Shown here in pieces: positions 4,229 through 64,000 of a DNA stretch of 64,000 nt (positions are counted from its first letter, which is position 1; each line of letters opens with the position of its first letter). This DNA comes from an uncultured Gammaproteobacteria bacterium. Its GTDB lineage: Bacteria > Patescibacteriota > Microgenomatia > Levybacterales > UBA12049. The position numbers and the translations under genes are program-made. The notes under the pieces were generated by a model. That model had not been told where the DNA came from and did no database searches. It worked only from the letters and a program-made list of their open reading frames with translations. The stretch is from assembly GCA_964515545.1 (NCBI GenBank), contig CAZERI010000001.1:69625-133624 (forward strand), read 5' to 3'.

Positions 4229-5608
4229 TTACCCAACAAATGCTTTAGTTATCCCCATGATATCATCAACAATTTTAGCCTTGTTTTCCACAAGACCTTC
4301 TATCTTTTCCACACCATGCATAATGGTAGTATGATCACGTCCTCCTAAGAGATTGCCTATTTCAACATAGGTGAGGCCTAGCTGCTCTTTGAGAAGATAC
4401 ATCGCTACCTGTCGGGCTTTAACAAGGCTTGCGTCACGTTTTGGTCCTTTGAGTTGAGTTGCTTTCACTCCATAGAACTCACAGACACTCTTAACTACAT
4501 CTTCAGCGTGGATATGCGAAGTCCTCTCTTCGCGCATAATCCCTAGAGCTTTTTCTGCTAGATCGAGATTGATCTCTCCCCCTGTGGTAGTAGCTTGGGT
4601 AATAACGCGAAGTAACAACCCCTCAAGGCTCCGTGTATCCTCTACTCTCTCTGCCAGAAGTGTGGCGACTTCAATTGGTAGGCTATAACCAAATTTCTCA
4701 GCTTTCATTTGGAGGATTGCAGTCTTTAGCTCAACATCAGGCTTCTCGATATCGACAGTTAATCCTCCAGCAAAGCGGGAAGAAAGACGCTTTTCCAACT
4801 TCTTTATCTCATGGGGCGGGCGATCTGAGGAGAGGCAGATTTGCGCATGGTTATCAATAAGGATATTAAATGTATGAAATAATTCTTCTTGGACTTTCTC
4901 CTTACCTTCAATAAACTGGATATCGTCAATAATAAGAAGAATTGCGGAGCGAAATCTCTTCTTCATTTGAGCGGTTGAATTAGTACGGATTGCCTCAACT
5001 ACTTCGTTAGTAAATTCTTCACTCGTAATATAGATGATCTTTTTATCAGGAGCTTGGAGATAGACTTGGTTAGCGATTGCATGCATGAGATGTGTCTTGC
5101 CTACTCCAACTGGTCCATAGAGAAAAAGGGGGTTATAAAATGTGCCGATATGCTTAGCCACTGTCGAGGCAGCTGTGAAAGCAAGCTGGTTACTGCCTGA
5201 GACAGCAAAAGTAGCAAAGGTGTACTCGGGACGGACTCGGGGAAGGTGTCCGATAGCAAGGGGCTGTGACTTAATTTTTTCTGGCTCAGCTGTGATTTCC
5301 TTTTTCTCATGAGAATCTGCAAAGAGAGGACTTTCTTCATCCTTAGATTCTTGTTTTATAGCTTTAACGATAAAGACTATTTCATTATCTCGTTTAGTGT
5401 TCTTGTCTAACAGGAGCTTTATATCAGCCTTAAAGCGTTTTTGGAGTAAGTCTGCGATCATAAGAGAAGGAGTGGCGATGGTTGCAATATTGTCATCAAG
5501 CGAAAGGAGTGCAGTACTTTTAAAAAACATGACAAAATTGCCTGTTGAGACCTTCTTTTTAATTTCTGAGAGTACGGCATTCCAAGTAGCTGTTAATTCT
5601 TTATCCAT
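4229..5608 (-). CDS. dnaA: chromosomal replication initiator protein DnaA
   Basis: Walker A GPVGVGKTHLMHAI, AAA+ domain, C-terminal DnaA DNA-binding signature (LTYVEIGNLLGGRDHTTIMHGVEKIE). Confidence 0.95.
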   Translation of the reverse strand: MDKELTATWNAVLSEIKKKVSTGNFVMFFKSTALLSLDDNIATIATPSLMIADLLQKRFKADIKLLLDKNTKRDNEIVFIVKAIKQESKDEESPLFADSHEKKEITAEPEKIKSQPLAIGHLPRVRPEYTFATFAVSGSNQLAFTAASTVAKHIGTFYNPLFLYGPVGVGKTHLMHAIANQVYLQAPDKKIIYITSEEFTNEVVEAIRTNSTAQMKKRFRSAILLIIDDIQFIEGKEKVQEELFHTFNILIDNHAQICLSSDRPPHEIKKLEKRLSSRFAGGLTVDIEKPDVELKTAILQMKAEKFGYSLPIEVATLLAERVEDTRSLEGLLLRVITQATTTGGEINLDLAEKALGIMREERTSHIHAEDVVKSVCEFYGVKATQLKGPKRDASLVKARQVAMYLLKEQLGLTYVEIGNLLGGRDHTTIMHGVEKIEGLVENKAKIVDDIMGITKAFVG

Positions 5609-35693: not shown

Positions 35694-36509
35694 ATGGATG
35701 TAACCCCTGAGCATATTTTTCAATTTCAAGAAAAGATTCTTACCTGGTATAGCCACAACAAGCGTGATTTGCCTTGGCGAAAGACCAGGAACCCTTATCA
35801 CATTCTTATCTCTGAGGTGATGTCGCAGCAGACACAGCTTGCTCGGGTAATTCCAAAATATGAAGCCTGGATTACGAAGTTCTCACGAGTAGATGAGCTG
35901 GCTAATGCAGCTACCAGCGATGTGTTGCGGATGTGGTCGGGGCTTGGCTATAACAGAAGAGCTCTTAATCTGCAGAAAACAGCGCAAGTTATTGTGAAAG
36001 AGTATGGAGGAGTGTTCCCAAAAGAGGTCGAAGAGTTGGTTAAACTCCCCGGATTAGGAAAATATACAGCCTCAGCGGTGGCCTGCTTTGCTTTTGATGT
36101 CCAGATCCCAGTAATTGACACCAATATTCGTAAAGTCATTACCCATGAATTCTTTCAAGGAGTATTGCCAGAGGAGAAGATGATTGAAAAAATAGCACTC
36201 CATATTCTTCCGTTAGGCAAGGCTTATGAGTGGAATCAAGCGTTAATGGACTATAGCGCTCTTATGATGAAAGGTAAAAAAATTCCTGTTCCTAAACAAT
36301 CCCACTTCCTAAGTTCTAATAGGTATTATAGGGGACAGACAATAAAGCTTTTACTGAGCGTGTCTGAGATATCTCTTTCAGGGCTCTGGGATTTTTTCGA
36401 TGAGCGAAATCCAATTGAGAGAGGAAGGCTAGAAGAGCTCTTATTATCGATGGAGAAGGATGGTCTTATTATTGTAAGGAAAGGGAGAATTTCTCTGCCA
36501 GCAGGGTAA
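35694..36509 (+). CDS. HhH-GPD DNA glycosylase, MutY-like catalytic domain, lacking the 4Fe-4S cluster loop and the C-terminal NUDIX-like domain
   Basis: SEVMSQQTQ (MutY-type), HhH LPGLGKYTASAVACFAF, catalytic Asp in PVIDTNIRKV. No Cys cluster. Confidence 0.7.
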   Translation: MDVTPEHIFQFQEKILTWYSHNKRDLPWRKTRNPYHILISEVMSQQTQLARVIPKYEAWITKFSRVDELANAATSDVLRMWSGLGYNRRALNLQKTAQVIVKEYGGVFPKEVEELVKLPGLGKYTASAVACFAFDVQIPVIDTNIRKVITHEFFQGVLPEEKMIEKIALHILPLGKAYEWNQALMDYSALMMKGKKIPVPKQSHFLSSNRYYRGQTIKLLLSVSEISLSGLWDFFDERNPIERGRLEELLLSMEKDGLIIVRKGRISLPAG

Positions 36510-39425: not shown

Positions 39426-40549
39426 GAGTAGCCTTAGTGCATGATTATATTAAGGAATATGGGGGGGCAGAAAGAGTCTTAGAGGCTCTCCACGAGGCCT
39501 TTCCTCAAGCAGATGTCTACACCACAGTCTATTTGCCTTCCTATTTAGGCCCACACAGAGAGCGATTCAAGGATTGGAAGATTCATACGAGCTTTCTTAA
39601 TTATATTCCTGGCAAAGCTAAACTGATCAGTCCTTTTCGCCTCTTATCACCCTTAGCATTCAGGTCGTTTGATCTCTCGAAATATGACGTTATTATCACT
39701 TCAGCAACAGGTGCTTATTTCCCCAATACTCTCCATAAGAAAAAGGCAAAACTTATTTGTTACTGTCATACACCCCCTCGTTATCTCTATGGCTATGCTA
39801 CTGCCAGAGAATGGAAGAAAAATACCTTTTTGAAGATAGTAGGAGAGACAGCTAATCATTTTTTGCGAATTGTTGATTTTAATGCCTCTCAAAATGTTGA
39901 TCAGTATATAGCCAATTCTGAGGAAGTAAGGGCGCGTATCCAGAAGTTTTATCGTAAAGACGCAAAGGTTATTTATCCTCCAGTTGAGGTAGATAAAAGA
40001 GATAATAAAGCAGTAAAGCGAAGTTATTACCTCACCGGAGGTAGGCTCGCGCGGGCTAAGCATGTCGATCTTATTGTCAAAGCATGTCGTGAGTTGGAAC
40101 TCCCTCTTAAAGTCTTTGGTAAGGCTTTTGCGGGTTATGGGGAGGAATTACAGCAAATGGCAAATGGCAAATGGCAAATAGTAAATGGAGAAAAAAAACC
40201 ATTGATTGAGTTTGTGGGGGAAGTATCAGATAAAGAAAAACTGGATTTGATGCGGGGAGCTAAAGCCTTTCTCTTTGCCTCAGAGGATGAGGATTTTGGC
40301 ATCACACCAGTGGAGGCGATGGGGCAAGGAACACCGGTTATTGCCTATCGTTCAGGTGGAGTGAAAGAGACTGTGGTTGAAAATAAAACAGGCCTTTTTT
40401 TTGATCAGCTTTCGGTAGAAAGCTTGAAAGAGCAGCTTAAAGTATTTAGCAGAAAAAGTCTAAAAGCAGAAGATTGTGAGAAGAGGGCGAAAGATTTCTC
40501 CAAAGAAAAGTTCCTTAAATCAATTACTTCTTTTATCAACTCCCTCTAA
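39422..40549 (+). CDS. glycosyltransferase family 4 (GT-B, retaining)
   Basis: N-terminal MRVALVHDYIKEYGGAERV. C-terminal EX7E motif EDFGITPVEAMGQGTPVIAY. ATGA overlap with the exonuclease gene. Confidence 0.8.
   Translation: MRVALVHDYIKEYGGAERVLEALHEAFPQADVYTTVYLPSYLGPHRERFKDWKIHTSFLNYIPGKAKLISPFRLLSPLAFRSFDLSKYDVIITSATGAYFPNTLHKKKAKLICYCHTPPRYLYGYATAREWKKNTFLKIVGETANHFLRIVDFNASQNVDQYIANSEEVRARIQKFYRKDAKVIYPPVEVDKRDNKAVKRSYYLTGGRLARAKHVDLIVKACRELELPLKVFGKAFAGYGEELQQMANGKWQIVNGEKKPLIEFVGEVSDKEKLDLMRGAKAFLFASEDEDFGITPVEAMGQGTPVIAYRSGGVKETVVENKTGLFFDQLSVESLKEQLKVFSRKSLKAEDCEKRAKDFSKEKFLKSITSFINSL
40155..40189 (+). repeat. heptanucleotide tandem repeat (AAATGGC)x3 plus two degenerate units, followed by an A8 tract (40191-40198), inside the GT4 coding sequence
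   Basis: Units at 40155-61, 40162-68, 40169-75 (perfect); 40176-82 AAATAGT; 40183-89 AAATGGA. Confidence 0.6.
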
Positions 40550-40553
40550 AATA

Positions 40554-40573
40554 GGAGGGCGCGTTCACCCTCC
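40554..40573 (-). terminator. GC-rich hairpin GGAGGG-CGCGTTCA-CCCTCC followed on the minus strand by UAUUUUA; probable terminator of minus-strand transcript(s) from the GC-rich island
   Basis: 6-bp stem read from the sequence. A U-rich tract only on the minus-strand side. Confidence 0.4.
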
Positions 40574-40622
40574 AGAAGGTGAGCAAACGCGCCGAAAATT
40601 TCGTATCAGATGACCTGCTTCG

Positions 40623-40808
40623 TTACTGCGGAGCACATTGCGGACAGCGTCCGCTGCCCCGACTGTGGGTGGGACACACCCTCCGCGTGCACTTGGGAGA
40701 GTGACATTCATATCCCGGGTTTTTGCACCCGGAGACGCAGCATCTCGCCTCGTAAGCCTTTCGGATCGCCTTACGTTCAGTGGAACTATAGCGCTTTGAT
40801 TTGGCCAC
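40623..40808 (-). CDS. small basic Cys-rich (zinc-ribbon-like) ORF, 61 aa, within the GC-rich island
   Basis: MAKSKRYSSTERKAIRKAYEARCCVSGCKNPGYECHSPKCTRRVCPTHSRGSGRCPQCAPQ: four Cys pairs. Could be a chance ORF of GC-rich DNA. Confidence 0.3.
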   Translation of the reverse strand: MAKSKRYSSTERKAIRKAYEARCCVSGCKNPGYECHSPKCTRRVCPTHSRGSGRCPQCAPQ

Positions 40809-41008
40809 AGTAGGCTCCTCTCATGGGTAGGATCGTGGTACGACCTGTACCCTTCTAAGGAGATATCTCCTCACAAGGGTACAGATACATACCTCTGATA
40901 TGAAATAAAAGTTCTCAATTAAAAAGACCATCAGGCAATTCTGGAGGTTTTCAAATTGATGGGAAGATTGTAACAGAAGAGGTAAGAGAGAGTAAAGATG
41001 CTATAGGA

Positions 41009-41234
41009 TGGGTTTGCGCCTCCCCGACAACGTTGTCGGGGAGGACGCTCGCCTGTGTGAACTCAGTGGGTGGGCTGCGCTGCAGCCCTTTCTTCGGTTG
41101 TCGGCATCCGTTGAATGGGGCAGAGCCCCAATCGGACGCGGGCTGCGTCCAGACGCTTTTCGATGGCTTCCCGCTCCCCGGGGAGCCAATTGCGTCCGTC
41201 GCGGAGCATCCGCGTAAGGACGATCGGATCGTCC
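41009..41234. repeat. cluster of six perfect GC-rich palindromes/hairpins (26, 17, 17, 12, 15 and 17 nt)
   Basis: CCTCCCCGACAACGTTGTCGGGGAGG (41009-41034); GGGCTGCGCTGCAGCCC (41062-78); GGACGCGGGCTGCGTCC (41144-60); CTCCCCGGGGAG (41174-85); CGCGGAGCATCCGCG (41200-14); GGACGATCGGATCGTCC (41218-34). Confidence 0.6.
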
Positions 41235-41573
41235 TCAGACTTCTTGATGCCCTTTCTGTGTTTCATTGCCCTGGCCCTCCTGGACGATAGGCATGAGATA
41301 CGAGATGGTTGTTCTTTTCCCCTCGAGGGGCGGTTTGATCACCAAGGTATGCGTACCCTGGTTGACGAGTTGACGAATTCTGTGGACGGAGAACTCCTCC
41401 ATGTTGAGGACACGTCTGTGTTTACGGCATAACGTATCACCTGACTCAGCGAGTCGGTGACAGCCGTCCTCAAAACAAACGTGTCGCGTAGGATCGAACA
41501 TACGAGAGACTTCCTTCCCTGAACAACGGATAAATAGCGCGATGTGCCTACCAAACACTCTTTCCACTGACAT
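41235..41573 (-). CDS. hypothetical Cys/His-containing ORF (112 aa) in the GC-rich island; may continue by frameshift into ORF 41063..41266
   Basis: HVCFEDGCHRLAESGDTLCRKHRR segment (zinc-finger/HNH-like flavour). Frame ends 1 nt out of phase with the next ORF. Confidence 0.25.
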   Translation of the reverse strand: MSVERVFGRHIALFIRCSGKEVSRMFDPTRHVCFEDGCHRLAESGDTLCRKHRRVLNMEEFSVHRIRQLVNQGTHTLVIKPPLEGKRTTISYLMPIVQEGQGNETQKGHQEV

Positions 41574-41793
41574 CCATAAGTCGTGGAGAAGGAGTGTAAC
41601 CCCAAAAGAATCTCTTTGGGTTGGCTACAGCGCCACGAGAAAAAACATAGTTTTACCCATGACGCCATAGCCAAGACTCTCTCGCAAATGAGAGAGTAAA
41701 GAAATAATAAGTTCACAACAAGCTGTTAAAGGTCTAAAGTTGAGAGCCGTCTCACCCATGCGTAACGGGTGAGCGTATCTCAGCTTTATGTGG

Positions 41794-41802
41794 ATTATAG
41801 CA
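41794..41802 (-). promoter_or_regulatory. extended -10 element (TGCTATAAT on the minus strand) pointing into the GC-rich island
   Basis: Reverse complement of ATTATAGCA at 41794-41802. Confidence 0.3.
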
Positions 41803-41941
41803 CTCATTAATTGAGGCTACCTGACAAAAAAAAGACATGGAAATCCATGCCTGTAGAGTCAATTTTAGCAAAGAGAAATAAAGATTGCAAACTATAGGTT
41901 ATTGATGGGGTAGATTTAAGCTATGCTACAATCGAGCAGCT

Positions 41942-42796
41942 ATGCCGGAACTACCAGAAGTTGAGACTATACGCAAAGGTTTGGAGAAGTATATTGTCGG
42001 TAAAGCGATCGAAGGAGTTGAGGTAAGACGTGAAAAGCTCTTTACAGGGGAGGCCCATGAGGTGATAGGAGCACAAATTGAAGCTGTCAGGCGCTTTGGG
42101 AAAGGCTTAGTCATTGATCTATCAAATGGCTATAGCATTACAGCCCATGTCAAAATGACTGGGCAGTTCGTCTATGTGGGGCAGGAGACAAAGAATCTTC
42201 ATCCTACGTTGGATATCCCGCAGAAATTACCCCATAAGCATACTCATGTTATTGTTACGCTTAGGGATGAGAGTGGAGAAAAGAGCCAGCTTTTTTATAA
42301 TGACATCAGACAGTTTGGCTGGCTGAGAGTGGTTAAGACAAGTGAAGTTAAAAATCAGCCATTCTTTAAGTCGCTTGGCCCGGAGCCTTTTTCAGATTTA
42401 ACGTTGTCGATATTCAAAAAGATCCTCTTGTCATCAAATATGCCCATCAAACCGCTTCTAATGGATCAAGCCAAAATAAGCGGTATTGGCAATATTTATG
42501 CTAATGACGCGCTGTATGCATCCTTCATCGATCCTCGGCGTAAAAGTAATAGATTGGCCGACCACGAGCAACAAAGTCTCTTTACAGCTATTCTAGAGGT
42601 CTTGGAAAGAGCTTTAACATACGGCGGAGCGAGTGAAACCAACTACATCCAGGTAGATGGCGGAAAAGGTGAGTATCAGCATCATTTTTTGGTATACGGC
42701 AAACAAGGAGAAAAGTGTATTCGCTGCGGAACTAGTATTGAGCGAATCAAACAAGGAGGCAGGAGTACGTTTTTCTGTCCCACCTGCCAAAAGTAA
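41942..42796 (+). CDS. mutM: formamidopyrimidine-DNA glycosylase (Fpg/MutM)
   Basis: N-terminal MPELPEVE (catalytic Pro2/Glu3). H2TH. C-terminal zinc finger CIRCG...CPTCQK. Confidence 0.9.
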   Translation: MPELPEVETIRKGLEKYIVGKAIEGVEVRREKLFTGEAHEVIGAQIEAVRRFGKGLVIDLSNGYSITAHVKMTGQFVYVGQETKNLHPTLDIPQKLPHKHTHVIVTLRDESGEKSQLFYNDIRQFGWLRVVKTSEVKNQPFFKSLGPEPFSDLTLSIFKKILLSSNMPIKPLLMDQAKISGIGNIYANDALYASFIDPRRKSNRLADHEQQSLFTAILEVLERALTYGGASETNYIQVDGGKGEYQHHFLVYGKQGEKCIRCGTSIERIKQGGRSTFFCPTCQK

Positions 42797-61712: not shown

Positions 61713-61785
61713 GGGCCGGTAGCTTAGTTGGTAGAGCGTCGCTTTTGCACAGCGAAGGTCGAGAGTTCGAATCTCTTCCGGTCCA
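61713..61785 (+). tRNA. tRNA-Ala (anticodon UGC), with a G3:U70 wobble pair; no encoded CCA
   Basis: Cloverleaf folded by hand: acceptor GGGCCGG/CCGGTCC with G3-T70, D-arm TAGCTTAGTTGGTAGAGC, anticodon loop TTTGCAC, T-arm GAGAGTTCGAATCTCTT, discriminator A. Confidence 0.9.
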
Positions 61786-61874
61786 CACTTTGGCAAATTC
61801 AGCAAAGCTGAAATTTGGCAAAGAGATCGAAGAGATGAGAAGCAAGCAACGCAAGTTGCAGTCCCCGTAGGGGA

Positions 61875-61891
61875 AATCTCTTCCGGTCCAC
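61875..61891 (+). repeat. exact 17-nt direct repeat of the tRNA-Ala 3' end (AATCTCTTCCGGTCCAC; first copy 61770-61786), 105 nt downstream
   Basis: Both copies read from the sequence; identical over 17 nt, and over 19 of 20 including flanks. Confidence 0.65.
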
Positions 61892-61954
61892 CCATTCGAC
61901 TCGCTTTGCTCGCTCAGGGCAAGCCAGCTAGTTTAGCTTGTCAATTTGGACAAG

Positions 61955-61977
61955 CCCCCTAGTTAGAGGGGGTTTTT
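61955..61977 (+). terminator. intrinsic terminator-like hairpin CCCCCT-AGTTAG-AGGGGG + T5 between tRNA-Ala and the 23S rRNA
   Basis: 6-bp G/C stem followed by TTTTT. Confidence 0.5.
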
Positions 61978-62089
61978 CCAAATTTGATAAGAGAGCTCTT
62001 TAACAAGTGAAGAGAATATTCCGTCCACAGCCGTGGATGGAATAAATGTTTTTGTCTAGTCCCATGAAAATTGGGACAAAATAAAAATC

Positions 62090-64000
62090 TACTCATAATG
62101 CCATTAATGGATGCCTAGGCAATGATGACCGAGGAAGGACGCACACGGCGGCGATACTCGTCGGGGAGGGGCCACGACCCTTTGATCCGGCGGTCTCCGA
62201 ATGGGGCAACCCACCAGCTTGTCTGGTAGCCTGCAGTAAACATTAGTCGTAAGACTATAATAGCTGTTGAGCTGGGAACGGCGTGAACTGAAACATCTTA
62301 GTAGCGCCAGGAATATAAATCATATGAGATTCCGTCAGTAGCGGTGAGCGAAAGCGGAACAGTCTAAACCACTTTATGTGGGGTTGTAGGGCAGACGATA
62401 TGTGATGAAGTATAGATAGCAGAAGGACTCGGAATAGTCCTCCAAAGAACGTGAAAGACGTGTATGCGAAATATATACTTCCGCTAGTTTGTACCTAAGT
62501 ACCATGGAGCACGATAAACTCTGTGGGAATCCGGGTCGACCACGATCCAAGACTAAATATCAGCATTGACCGATAGTGAACTAGTACCGCGAGGGAAAGG
62601 TGAAAAGCACCCCGGGAGGGGGATGAAATAGAACTGAAATTAATGGCTAACAAGCAGCGAAAGTCTCAGCAATGGGATGATCGCGTGCCTATTGAAGAAT
62701 GAACCGGTGAGTTATTGTTTGCAGCGTTAGTTTAAGCAAGTTTCCTTGCGTAGACAGAGTGAAAGCGTGCCCTAACCGGGCGATAGTTGCAAGTAATAGA
62801 CCCGAAACTGGGTGAGCTAACCTTGAGCAGGTTGAGTCCTACAGAAATGTAGGAGGAGGACCGCACTCGTTACCGTAGCAATGGTATGAGATGACTTGAG
62901 GTTAGGGGCAATATGCCAATCGAACCCAGAGATAGCTGGTTCTCCCCGAAATATATTATGGTATAGCGCTATGTATACTCTTACGGGGTAGAGCACTGAA
63001 TGGTTCGTGGGGGAGCAATCTCTCGCAACCAATCAAACTCCGAATACGTAAGATTTAGCATAGTAGTCAGGCTGGTCGGGCTAAGCTGATCAGTCAAAAG
63101 GGAAACAGCCCAGACTCCCATTTAAGGCCTCTAAATCAAAGCTAAGTTTTGAAGGAAGTCAAGATCCTTAGACACCCAGGAAGTTGGCTTAGAAGCAGCC
63201 ATCTTTTAAAGATAGCGTAACAGCTCACTGGCGGATGGTTCTTGGCGCCGAAAATTTATCGAGGATTAAGCTTTGTGCCGAAATTGGAGATTTGTTAGTA
63301 ATAACAAGTGGTAGGGGAGCGTTCTATTTGCAGTGAAGTTGGAGTGTAAACTCTGGTGGAGCGGATAGAAGTGAGAATGCCGGTATGAGTAGCGATAGAT
63401 AGGTGAGAAACCTATCCACCGAAAGCCCAAGGTTTCCTCCGCAATGTAAGTCAGCGGAGGGTTAGTCGACCCTAAGGGTATTCCTCGTTAAAGGGGATTA
63501 GCCCGATGGATAATCCGTTAAAATTCGGATACAGATTATATGTATGTAAGGGAGTTTCGGAGTTGGAAAAGCAGAGCTGGCTCCGGCCAGTCCAAGCAGT
63601 GAGATAGTGATGATCGGCAAATCCGTCTGTCACGTTTAATTAAGCTGTGAGTGAAAGTTTCCTAGTAATAGGGGATAATTTTGTAGTTTTCAGTTCCCAA
63701 GAAACGCTTCATTACGATCCGTAAGGATCAAAACATATAGTTTTTCGTACCGTATTACCGACACAGGTGGGCTGGTCGAGTAGACTAAGGTGATCGGGAG
63801 ACAGAGGTTTAAGGAACTCGGCAAAAAAGCTAGGCGTAACCTATGGGAGATGCCTTTCCGCAATGAGATTTGCGGACACAGCAAAAGAGTATTTAGCGAC
63901 TGTTTATCTAAAACACAGGTCCCTGCAAAGCTGAAAAGCAACGTATAGGGGCTGACACCTGCCCAGTGCCGGTAAGTCAATGATTGTCGGCTGATCCAAG
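62090..64000 (+). rRNA. rrl: 23S ribosomal RNA, 5' approx. 1.9 kb (continues beyond the window); no 16S gene upstream within the window
   Basis: Conserved 23S blocks GGATGCCTAGGC, GAACTGAAACATCTTAGTA, GATTCCGTCAGTAGCGGTGAGCGAA, CCGACACAGGTGG, CTGCCCAGTGCCGGTAAG at the expected spacing. Confidence 0.9.

Follow-up and report, generated by a model that had tools for sequence, protein, structure and literature searches.

The 64,000-nt window analysed here, the whole stretch of DNA under study, comes from a Levybacteria genome (Patescibacteria, candidate phyla radiation), and its contig recurs across many public metagenome assemblies. Between a GT4 gene and mutM it contains a block, at 40550-41810, that a preliminary description of the sequence had read as a palindrome-dense, GC-rich island without a dominant reading frame. 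Calculation shows that GC is not uniform and that the raw compositional anomaly stands, at a lower figure: the block has 51.5% GC against 41.7% for the window overall, rather than the 55-60% judged by eye. The bin 41001-42000 (~50% GC) tops all 64 1-kb bins of the window, exceeding even the 23S rRNA. Within the block the distribution is uneven, with GC-rich parts at 40550-40810 (56.7%) and 41001-41580 (56.0%; 63.7% in 41001-41240), a spacer of 40.5% at 40811-41000 and a leader end of 43.5% at 41581-41810. The analysis reported below points to an accessory operon of small genes on the minus strand, preceded by a conserved, structured leader RNA. Related loci are designated by L numbers.

Genes and signals in the GT4-mutM junction

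The features of the block, in the direction of its transcription, are as follows.

41862..41891, minus strand: promoter-like site P1 (TTTGCAA / TTGCAA-17-TGCTAAAAT), found by consensus scan in the divergent region beside the mutM start
41826..41852, minus strand: terminator-like hairpin AGGCATGGA/TCCATGTCT followed by a T8 run, between promoter sites P1 and P2, kept in relatives
41794..41802, minus strand: promoter P2 with extended -10 TGCTATAAT, predicted to drive the leader and the A-B genes
41502..41788, minus strand: structured 5' leader RNA of ~290 nt, starting at P2 and ending at the ORF A start
41735-41788, 41677-41696, 41621-41674, 41601-41620 and 41556-41596, minus strand: leader hairpins P1, P2, P3, P4 and P5, respectively
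41708..41723, minus strand: leader segment GCUUGUUGUGAACUUA, invariant in seven of eight sequences, the 5' strand of a proposed long-range helix
41510-41519, minus strand: conserved Shine-Dalgarno sequence GGGAAGGAAG, followed by the ORF A ATG at 41501
41235..41501, minus strand: ORF A, 88 aa, with a zinc finger C-x4-C-x10-C-x2-H and a C-terminal 'GTHxLxI...LVP' domain
41063..41266, minus strand: ORF B, 67 aa, a small soluble protein, overlapping ORF A by 32 nt and holding six GC-rich hairpins
41051..41065, minus strand: motif UGAGUUCACACAGGC, overlapping the ORF B stop just before the terminal hairpin, conserved in eight of eight sequences, the 3' strand of the proposed long-range helix
41016..41048, minus strand: terminal GC-rich hairpin, including a 26-nt palindrome (41019-41044), which ends the A-B unit
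40967..40996, minus strand: promoter-like site P3 (TTTACT-18-TGTTACAAT) for the downstream cassette, with an equivalent TTCTGCTAAAAT in L011, L091 and L092
40845..40884, minus strand: nested 20+20 nt hairpin in the 5' UTR of ORF C, in the window species only
40623..40808, minus strand: ORF C, 61 aa, basic and Cys-rich, with a GTG start and a Shine-Dalgarno sequence GAGAGGAG at 40815-40822
40544..40573, minus strand: intrinsic terminator, GGAGGG...CCCTCC and then TATTTT, directly beside the GT4 stop codon

The block contains 14 overlapping ORFs of at least 40 aa. The preliminary description had listed ten and taken them as a sign of non-coding DNA. The abundance of overlapping ORFs is real and is a by-product of the high GC content, but the non-coding inference fails because three minus-strand ORFs (A, B and C) pass coding tests. 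An excess of differences at third codon positions, together with synonymous changes, in the frames of these ORFs refutes the view that the block lacks a dominant reading frame. The codon-level pattern indicates that A, B and C are genuine small genes under purifying selection. A single frameshifted gene was also considered and dropped, as the frame offset between A and B varies by species (+1 in the window, -1 in L011).

ORF A had been proposed as a Cys/His ORF at 41235..41573; the gene is genuine, but its start lies at 41501. Its coding nature is supported by third-codon-position excess, numerous synonymous changes and the conserved Shine-Dalgarno sequence and ATG. Homologues at the same locus in L091, L092, L216, L217, L011 and L093 show 30-54% identity, and comparison with the CCCC-type alleles of L011 and L093 gives 17-25%. 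In every relative the A homologue combines an N-terminal zinc finger (CCCH or CCCC) with the C-terminal 'GTHxLxI...LVP' domain. Word-indexed protein searches with A returned the query itself only. An exhaustive HMMER scan of 1.84 billion representative proteins gave seven matches at E up to 0.001, only four of which, the query included, are small proteins of the A kind; two of the matches are distant small homologues (35-39% identical) whose genes lie between mutM and GT4 with the leader upstream. The 'GTHxL' domain is confined to syntenic Levybacteria mini-proteins. The third-best match, P0123 (511 aa), carries eight tandem C-x4-C...C-x2-H motifs (KCxxEGCxKW...C..H), which indicates that this type of zinc finger is common to repeat proteins of quite different organisms. 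The finger (residues ~1-55) also matches PHROG 144, 'HNH endonuclease', weakly (E = 0.03-0.05), and no Pfam match to the HNH catalytic domain was found in A. An AlphaFold2 model of A (pLDDT 68) consists of a zinc ribbon, two helices and a β-hairpin. Protein A is probably a nucleic-acid-binding regulator, with a possible winged-helix-like domain besides the zinc finger.

ORF B is 64% identical to its L093 homologue by BLASTP, and further homologues occur in L216, L011 and L092. The B and L093 genes differ at 26, 19 and 43 first, second and third codon positions, with 24 synonymous codon changes, and identity falls to ~28% in shifted frames. B had also been considered as a LacI-type helix-turn-helix protein; PDB-profile and Pfam scans did not support this, the best match being the 63-aa 'Viral responsive protein' 9l2r (E = 0.0015). 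In L217 the product of the 'B' slot (5254-5445, plus strand) is 63 aa long and combines a single hydrophobic helix at its N-terminus with a polar tail, an architecture like that of Hok-type toxins and unlike the soluble B of the window.

The preliminary description had judged the small basic Cys-rich ORF at 40623..40808, here ORF C, to be a plausible gene, and differences between strains bear this out: six of seven SNPs fall at codon position 3, with one amino-acid change between two strains. No homologue of C was found in word-indexed protein searches or in viral contigs, and the cassette is confined to the window species, its place in relatives being taken by another CxxC mini-protein, 57-61 aa long. 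Scans against known toxin, antitoxin and defence families gave no significant match for A, B, C or the neighbours in relatives.

Both boundary signals of the block named in the preliminary description, the extended -10 TGCTATAAT at 41794-41802 and the terminator hairpin at 40554-40573, are present on the minus strand and conserved in relatives. In promoter P2, GTCAGGTAGCCTCAA....TGAGTGCTATAAT is invariant or almost so across all relatives, and transcription would start at ~41787. The terminator at 40544..40573 is conserved at 79-86% in L011, L091 and L092. At the promoter-like site P1, ATAACCTATAGTTTGCAA...TGCTAnAAT is invariant in five species and is also present in L216. P1 is followed within ~10 nt by the terminator-like hairpin and T8 run and then by P2, and the pair is kept invariant; in relatives the hairpin lies after a 215-218-aa upstream gene that is absent from the window.

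The leader RNA and the history of the locus

The structured segment downstream of P2 is followed by a conserved Shine-Dalgarno sequence and ATG, which identifies it as a 5' leader, and the arrangement promoter-leader-Shine-Dalgarno-ATG is conserved in L091, L092, L216 and L217. In an alignment of eight sequences, the more distant L216 and L217 included, RNAalifold predicted 70 pairs arranged as five hairpins and a closing helix, 25 of them compensatory by its own count. Pairs that change on both sides number 26 of the 70. Across the alignment, 91.7% of the leader cells are paired, compared with 42-48% when partners are slid, and none of 500 shuffles matched the observed covariation. The window leader has a folding z-score of -8.3, its junction nucleotides are invariant, and its conservation is far above that of the proteins it precedes. 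The frequent G-U pairs fit a minus-strand transcript only. No intrinsic terminator lies between hairpin P5 and the Shine-Dalgarno sequence of ORF A. The covarying RNA occupies the AT-richer right end of the block and not its GC-rich core.

A covariance model of the 141-position leader core found the leader in seven species, at this locus only. The same model picks up weaker, shorter paralogous leaders before another small mutM-adjacent gene in relatives with longer islands (L011 6110-6233, L091 11138-11255, L092 4740-4854 and L093 8639-8760, all on the minus strand). These paralogues contain UCUUUAACA..., AUCUUUAC, two hairpins and a Shine-Dalgarno sequence AAGGAAGGAA, and precede a small membrane-protein gene beside mutM; this part has been lost from the window. 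Since paralogous leaders stand before small genes, the island seems to be built of successive modules, each a leader plus a mini-gene. Metagenome contigs scanned for an exact 17-mer yielded mostly chance matches, four loci being real by profile (L098, L118, L121 and L190), and two viral-contig 17-mer matches were not homologous to the leader by leader-profile score.

None of the familiar structured RNAs had been recognisable by eye, and the Rfam scans, which included OLE, GOLLD, ROOL, HEARO, introns, RNase P, tmRNA and 6S, agree. At gathering thresholds, the 4,227 models of Rfam 15 identified only LSU rRNA and a tRNA in the whole window, and no leader family. Relaxing the cut-off to E<=10 over 40300-42000 on both strands gave chance-level matches only (mir-599, P36, serC leader), far under threshold.

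Related loci were collected as the best 80 by GT4; many are labelled Levyibacteriota and others Microgenomates or generic Patescibacteria, and their GT4 proteins are 54-84% identical to that of the window. GT4-mutM synteny is widespread in Microgenomates, and in many genomes the two genes lie 2-55 nt apart or overlap. A tight junction in so many Microgenomates argues that it is ancestral and that the island is an insertion. Across L011-L090 the gap ranges from overlap to inserts of 0.2-4.6 kb, mostly unrelated to the island, and the junction is a recurrent insertion site. In addition to the window species, at least seven other Levybacteria species have the module between GT4 and mutM (L011, L091, L092, L093, L098, L216 and L217/L218), and its protein alleles are only 35-64% identical. 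L011, L091, L092 and L093 (GT4 81-86% identical) carry homologous inserts of 1.8-4.2 kb or more at the same place. Across the module-bearing species GT4 identity drops to 77% and mutM identity to 61% (61-72%). These comparisons indicate that the island is restricted to one Levybacteria subclade of ~8 species and was inserted into an ancestrally tight GT4-mutM junction. The alignments of A and B diverged too much to serve as queries in pattern-based searches for loci.

At the DNA level, three segments are conserved. The first, 41408/41601-41923, shows 74-84% identity in relatives; the second, 41008-41066, with the 26-mer inside, shows ~84% in three of four relatives, and L093 ~70% over a longer stretch; the third is the terminator region 40552-40593. 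The rest of the island is highly diverged or replaced, and the allele types of A and B are mosaic relative to the species tree. Variation within the species is likewise concentrated. Comparison of the window with L002 and L005 identified 19 SNPs, all within 40686-41066 (380 nt, 5%), and none in 8.5 kb of flanks (3 kb to the left and 5.5 kb to the right), a clustering suggestive of a hot spot for recombination or replacement. Among the SNPs are a 4-nt block change, TTAA to CGGG, at 40919-40922, and a GA-to-AG swap through which the bulge of the terminal hairpin moves by one nucleotide. A diversity-generating retroelement was considered for this cluster and dropped: the SNPs show no specificity for adenine, and a reverse transcriptase is absent.

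The module genes stand apart in codon composition as well. GC at third codon positions (GC3) is 0.58-0.71 in ORFs A, B and C and 0.36-0.44 in the flanking genes. It is high in every species although synonymous sites between alleles are near saturation, which argues against unameliorated foreign DNA.

Palindromes, message folding and end-to-end complementarity

The island contains four perfect even palindromes of at least 12 nt (40858-40871, 41019-41044, 41173-41186 and 41319-41330) out of 17 in the whole window, where dinucleotide shuffles lead to an expectation of 0.27. Only two of the four fall within 41009-41234, for which six perfect palindromes had been claimed. That count is fair if short centres are admitted, as seven distinct perfect-stem hairpins are present there when 1-5 nt are allowed at the centre. 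The island has 25 stems of 6 bp or more, compared with 2.8 +/- 2.0 in shuffles, an approximately ninefold enrichment. No two of the palindromes have the same sequence. Six of the seven hairpins of 41009-41234 sit within the ORF B coding sequence, and their sequences are not conserved. The nested hairpin that had been placed at 40836-40878 is real, with arms at 40845-40864 and 40865-40884, and the segment holding it has a folding z-score of -7.2. The terminal hairpin is present once per locus in every relative. Its stem varies with pairing retained (CCCCGAC/GTCGGGG, CCCCGC/GCGGGG, CCCCGCC/GGCGGGG) and thus covaries.

Folding is tighter than in dinucleotide shuffles for all 12 A and B genes, drawn from six species (z -2.0 to -5.9). 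The same holds against synonymous-codon shuffles, which permute codons and leave protein and codon usage unchanged (z -2.1 to -6.1). Host gene segments gave z-scores of -0.7 to +0.6 and -2.1 to +0.7, respectively. ORF B of the window is strongly structured by both measures (z -5.1 and -6.1). Given this excess folding of A and B and the position of the hairpins inside ORF B, the best interpretation of the palindromes is selection for mRNA structure superimposed on coding.

The invariant leader segment at 41723..41708 and the motif overlapping the ORF B stop, 41065..41051, are complementary along 15 bp, with a single bulge. Nowhere else in the window does AGTTCACA occur. As a duplex partner of the leader segment, the 3' motif ranks first on both strands of the 64 kb, the leader's own antisense excepted, with a duplex energy of -20.5 kcal/mol compared with a mean of -8.3 (sd 2.6). 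The pairing is found in all eight sequences, in 95.8% of cells compared with 25-42% when partners are slid. In L216, matching indels on both strands keep 14 consecutive pairs. Across the eight sequences, each mismatch is of the U-G kind when read on the sense transcript. On the plus strand at 41712-41740, within the invariant leader segment, there is a weak sigma-70-like site (TTCACA-17-TAAAGT, nine of 12 matches); if active, it would yield an RNA antisense to the start of the leader.

A candidate RNA-controlled operon and its alternatives

Taken together, the island is probably an accessory small-protein operon on the minus strand under RNA-structure-based post-transcriptional control. In this model, promoter P2, the ~290-nt leader, the overlapping genes A and B and the terminal GC hairpin would form one unit, and the promoter-like site P3, ORF C and the terminator a second. 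The leader segment would pair with the motif at the B stop and close the ~750-nt A-B message into a compact RNA clamped between its 5' and 3' ends, and this clamped structure would govern the stability and translation of the message. GC-richness and palindromes would then be a mark left by selection on synonymous sites in favour of RNA structure and not by a recent foreign origin. As to what the module does, we can only guess at a conflict- or addiction-type role or a niche-specific accessory function; an accessory or conflict-type role fits the fast protein evolution, the mosaic alleles across species and the clustered strain SNPs.

The nearest analogy to such a clamp is the tac/fbi pairing of hok mRNA, in which 5'-3' pairing keeps the full-length message stable and untranslated until its 3' end is processed (PMC9841398). 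Both systems have a compact, highly structured mRNA that encodes small overlapping reading frames, and both show complementarity between a stretch close to the 5' end and one at the 3' end, just ahead of the terminal hairpin; in the module, pairing of the two stretches is supported by conservation only. The L217 protein in the B slot, with its single N-terminal hydrophobic stretch, adds to the likeness. The module differs from hok/sok in that the window proteins A, B and C are predicted to be soluble and basic or zinc-binding rather than membrane toxins, and in that its unit is ~750 nt long compared with ~400 nt; the two share no sequence similarity, and no gene for an antisense RNA was identified in the module beyond the weak plus-strand promoter-like site at 41712-41740.

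Several observations weigh against the proposed operon and clamp. The long-range helix lacks two-sided covariation, 11 of its 16 pairs never varying; with both strands almost invariant no formal covariation can arise, and the helix therefore stays a proposal. It also competes with a local helix favoured by RNAalifold. The terminal hairpin has no U-tract, and the presumed start, end and single-transcript nature of the message are drawn from consensus motifs and conservation. GC-biased gene conversion, acting at a hot spot of recombination, might account for some of the high GC. On the protein side, none of the island ORFs, A, B and C included, and none of the extra ORFs of relatives had a significant match in Pfam, NCBIfam, PHROGs or PADLOC, and a fold search with the medium-confidence model of A returned no significant match, winged-helix proteins being the top non-significant ones. 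A, B and C have no hydrophobic stretch and so are not Hok-like toxins.

The leader could instead regulate gene A in cis, as a riboswitch or by sensing a ligand or protein in some other way, with the 3' complementarity incidental or secondary. Its location between promoter and conserved Shine-Dalgarno sequence and ATG, its multi-stem architecture with invariant junctions and strong covariation, its conservation above that of the encoded proteins and the shorter paralogous leader before another small gene would all suit such an element, and by eye the CU-rich strands of hairpins P2 and P5 could sequester the Shine-Dalgarno sequence GGAAGGAAG. This reading is compatible with most of the data and is a sub-variant of the operon model. 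As a separate account it seems rather unlikely: no terminator/antiterminator or clear Shine-Dalgarno-sequestering platform was identified in the leader, the downstream genes give no metabolite hint, the distribution is very narrow (~8 species), and the most conserved segment of the leader has a partner ~650 nt downstream, which is equally invariant and is its top partner in 64 kb. Unlike known riboswitches and other structured leaders, moreover, this one matches none of the 4,227 Rfam models and precedes ORFan mini-proteins. If the complementarity acts in the DNA, the inverted AGTTCACA motifs might flank an invertible or exchangeable A-B cassette, with the palindromes as recombination or protein-binding sites. 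A-B lies between the sole two AGTTCACA copies of the 64 kb, which are in inverted orientation, the A/B alleles are mosaic, the 19 strain SNPs are clustered, and the slot beyond the hairpin holds differing cassettes by species. An element of this kind is nevertheless clearly unlikely, as a single orientation was found in all 10 same-species contigs and in seven other species, and no recombinase, integrase or transposase was detected in or near any copy examined. The repeat mismatches, moreover, are all T-for-C on the sense strand (U-G in RNA), and G-U-type mismatches in the conserved helices of a minus-strand transcript point to RNA rather than DNA. Together with the placement of six of the seven hairpins in ORF B, where they are not conserved in sequence, this also leaves an array of protein-binding palindromes, one of the explanations offered earlier, without support; the terminal hairpin element is single at each locus.

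A remnant of a horizontally acquired, higher-GC phage or mobile element, decaying and functionless, with chance ORFs, would explain the atypical GC and GC3, the insertion into a junction that is tight among distant relatives, the ORFan nature of all products and the weak match of the zinc finger to the PHROG 'HNH endonuclease'. The zinc-finger mini-proteins that had been envisaged for such an element are real, but decay is not apparent: the block is retained at the same locus in eight species with mutM only 61-72% identical, A, B and C are under purifying selection, and promoters, Shine-Dalgarno sequences and RNA structure are conserved. GC3 is high despite saturated synonymous divergence, no phage or mobile-element gene was recognised in the block, and phage and viral collections contained no match (no blastn or tblastn match in 50,697 phage records, and PHROG matches insignificant). 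This makes a remnant very unlikely. Least probable of all is one ~1.2-kb non-coding structured RNA with the ORFs as by-products. The complete 1,246-nt minus-strand sequence does fold at -519 kcal/mol, with a negative z-score for each sub-segment, and ORFs overlap in all frames. A large minus-strand RNA had indeed been suggested, and its strand, promoter, terminator and structured first ~290 nt hold up; its GC-rich core, however, codes for protein. Third-position excess and synonymous changes are confined to the frames of A, B and C, identity is lost in shifted frames, the internal promoter and the conserved hairpin divide the block into two units, and the C segment is swapped for unrelated sequence in relatives.

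A more far-reaching version of the clamped-message model can also be entertained, in which the ~750-nt transcript from P2 to the terminal hairpin is a dual-function RNA, closed by the 5'-3' helix and kept fully folded by selection, that acts as a processing- or signal-activated switch or as a ribonucleoprotein scaffold with its own zinc-finger products. It would represent a new hok-like, RNA-gated conflict or addiction class with non-membrane effectors in bacteria of the candidate phyla radiation, and related leaders would gate several small genes of the island. We regard this as fairly improbable.

A GC-rich, strongly folding intergenic block in a lower-GC genome is the signature that led to the discovery of OLE, GOLLD, ROOL and HEARO. 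The island differs from these RNAs in that no such model matches either strand up to E 10, in that its GC-rich part is coding, and in that its covarying RNA is only ~290 nt long with ~43% GC. Treble-clef and CCCH zinc fingers, known from phage HNH N-termini and eukaryotic repeats, resemble the C-x4-C-x10-C-x2-H finger of ORF A, as its weak PHROG 144 matches reflect, and A differs from HNH-type proteins in lacking the catalytic domain. Among DNA elements, an integron or attC array is not indicated, the hairpin motif being single per locus and no integrase family occurring among the genes of the loci examined. REP or BIME repeats are not indicated either: the palindromes differ in sequence, CCCCGAC...GTCGGGG is single-copy per locus, and most of the hairpins lie inside a gene. 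The single orientation in same-species contigs and other species, and the lack of a detected recombinase, likewise give no sign of an inverton.

The leader matches no Rfam 15 family, and A and B fall outside the families of Pfam, NCBIfam, PHROGs and PADLOC. The kinds of element involved, a structured 5' leader, a structured small-protein mRNA and a 5'-3' clamp, are already known. Bacteria of the candidate phyla radiation have tiny genomes, and to our knowledge few regulatory RNAs have been described in them. The locus provides a covariation-supported leader family tied to ORFan zinc-finger mini-proteins confined to one clade, and a compositional anomaly that may be accounted for by mRNA-structure selection on synonymous sites of real genes. 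It also urges caution in screens for non-coding RNA, as GC-rich, frame-ambiguous intergenic blocks in AT-rich genomes may be coding. Should the 5'-3' clamp be true, gating of mRNA in the manner of hok would no longer be limited to type I toxins or to Proteobacteria and Firmicutes.

Two further observations concern the window outside the island. A second cluster of strain differences, six substitutions in 16 nt relative to L002, lies at 35840-35855, ~5 kb upstream of the island. At the far end of the window, tRNA-Ala(TGC) and the 23S rRNA gene occupy 61713-64000, preceded by protein-coding ORFs; no 16S gene is present in the 61 kb upstream, and 16S and 23S therefore appear to be unlinked in this genome.

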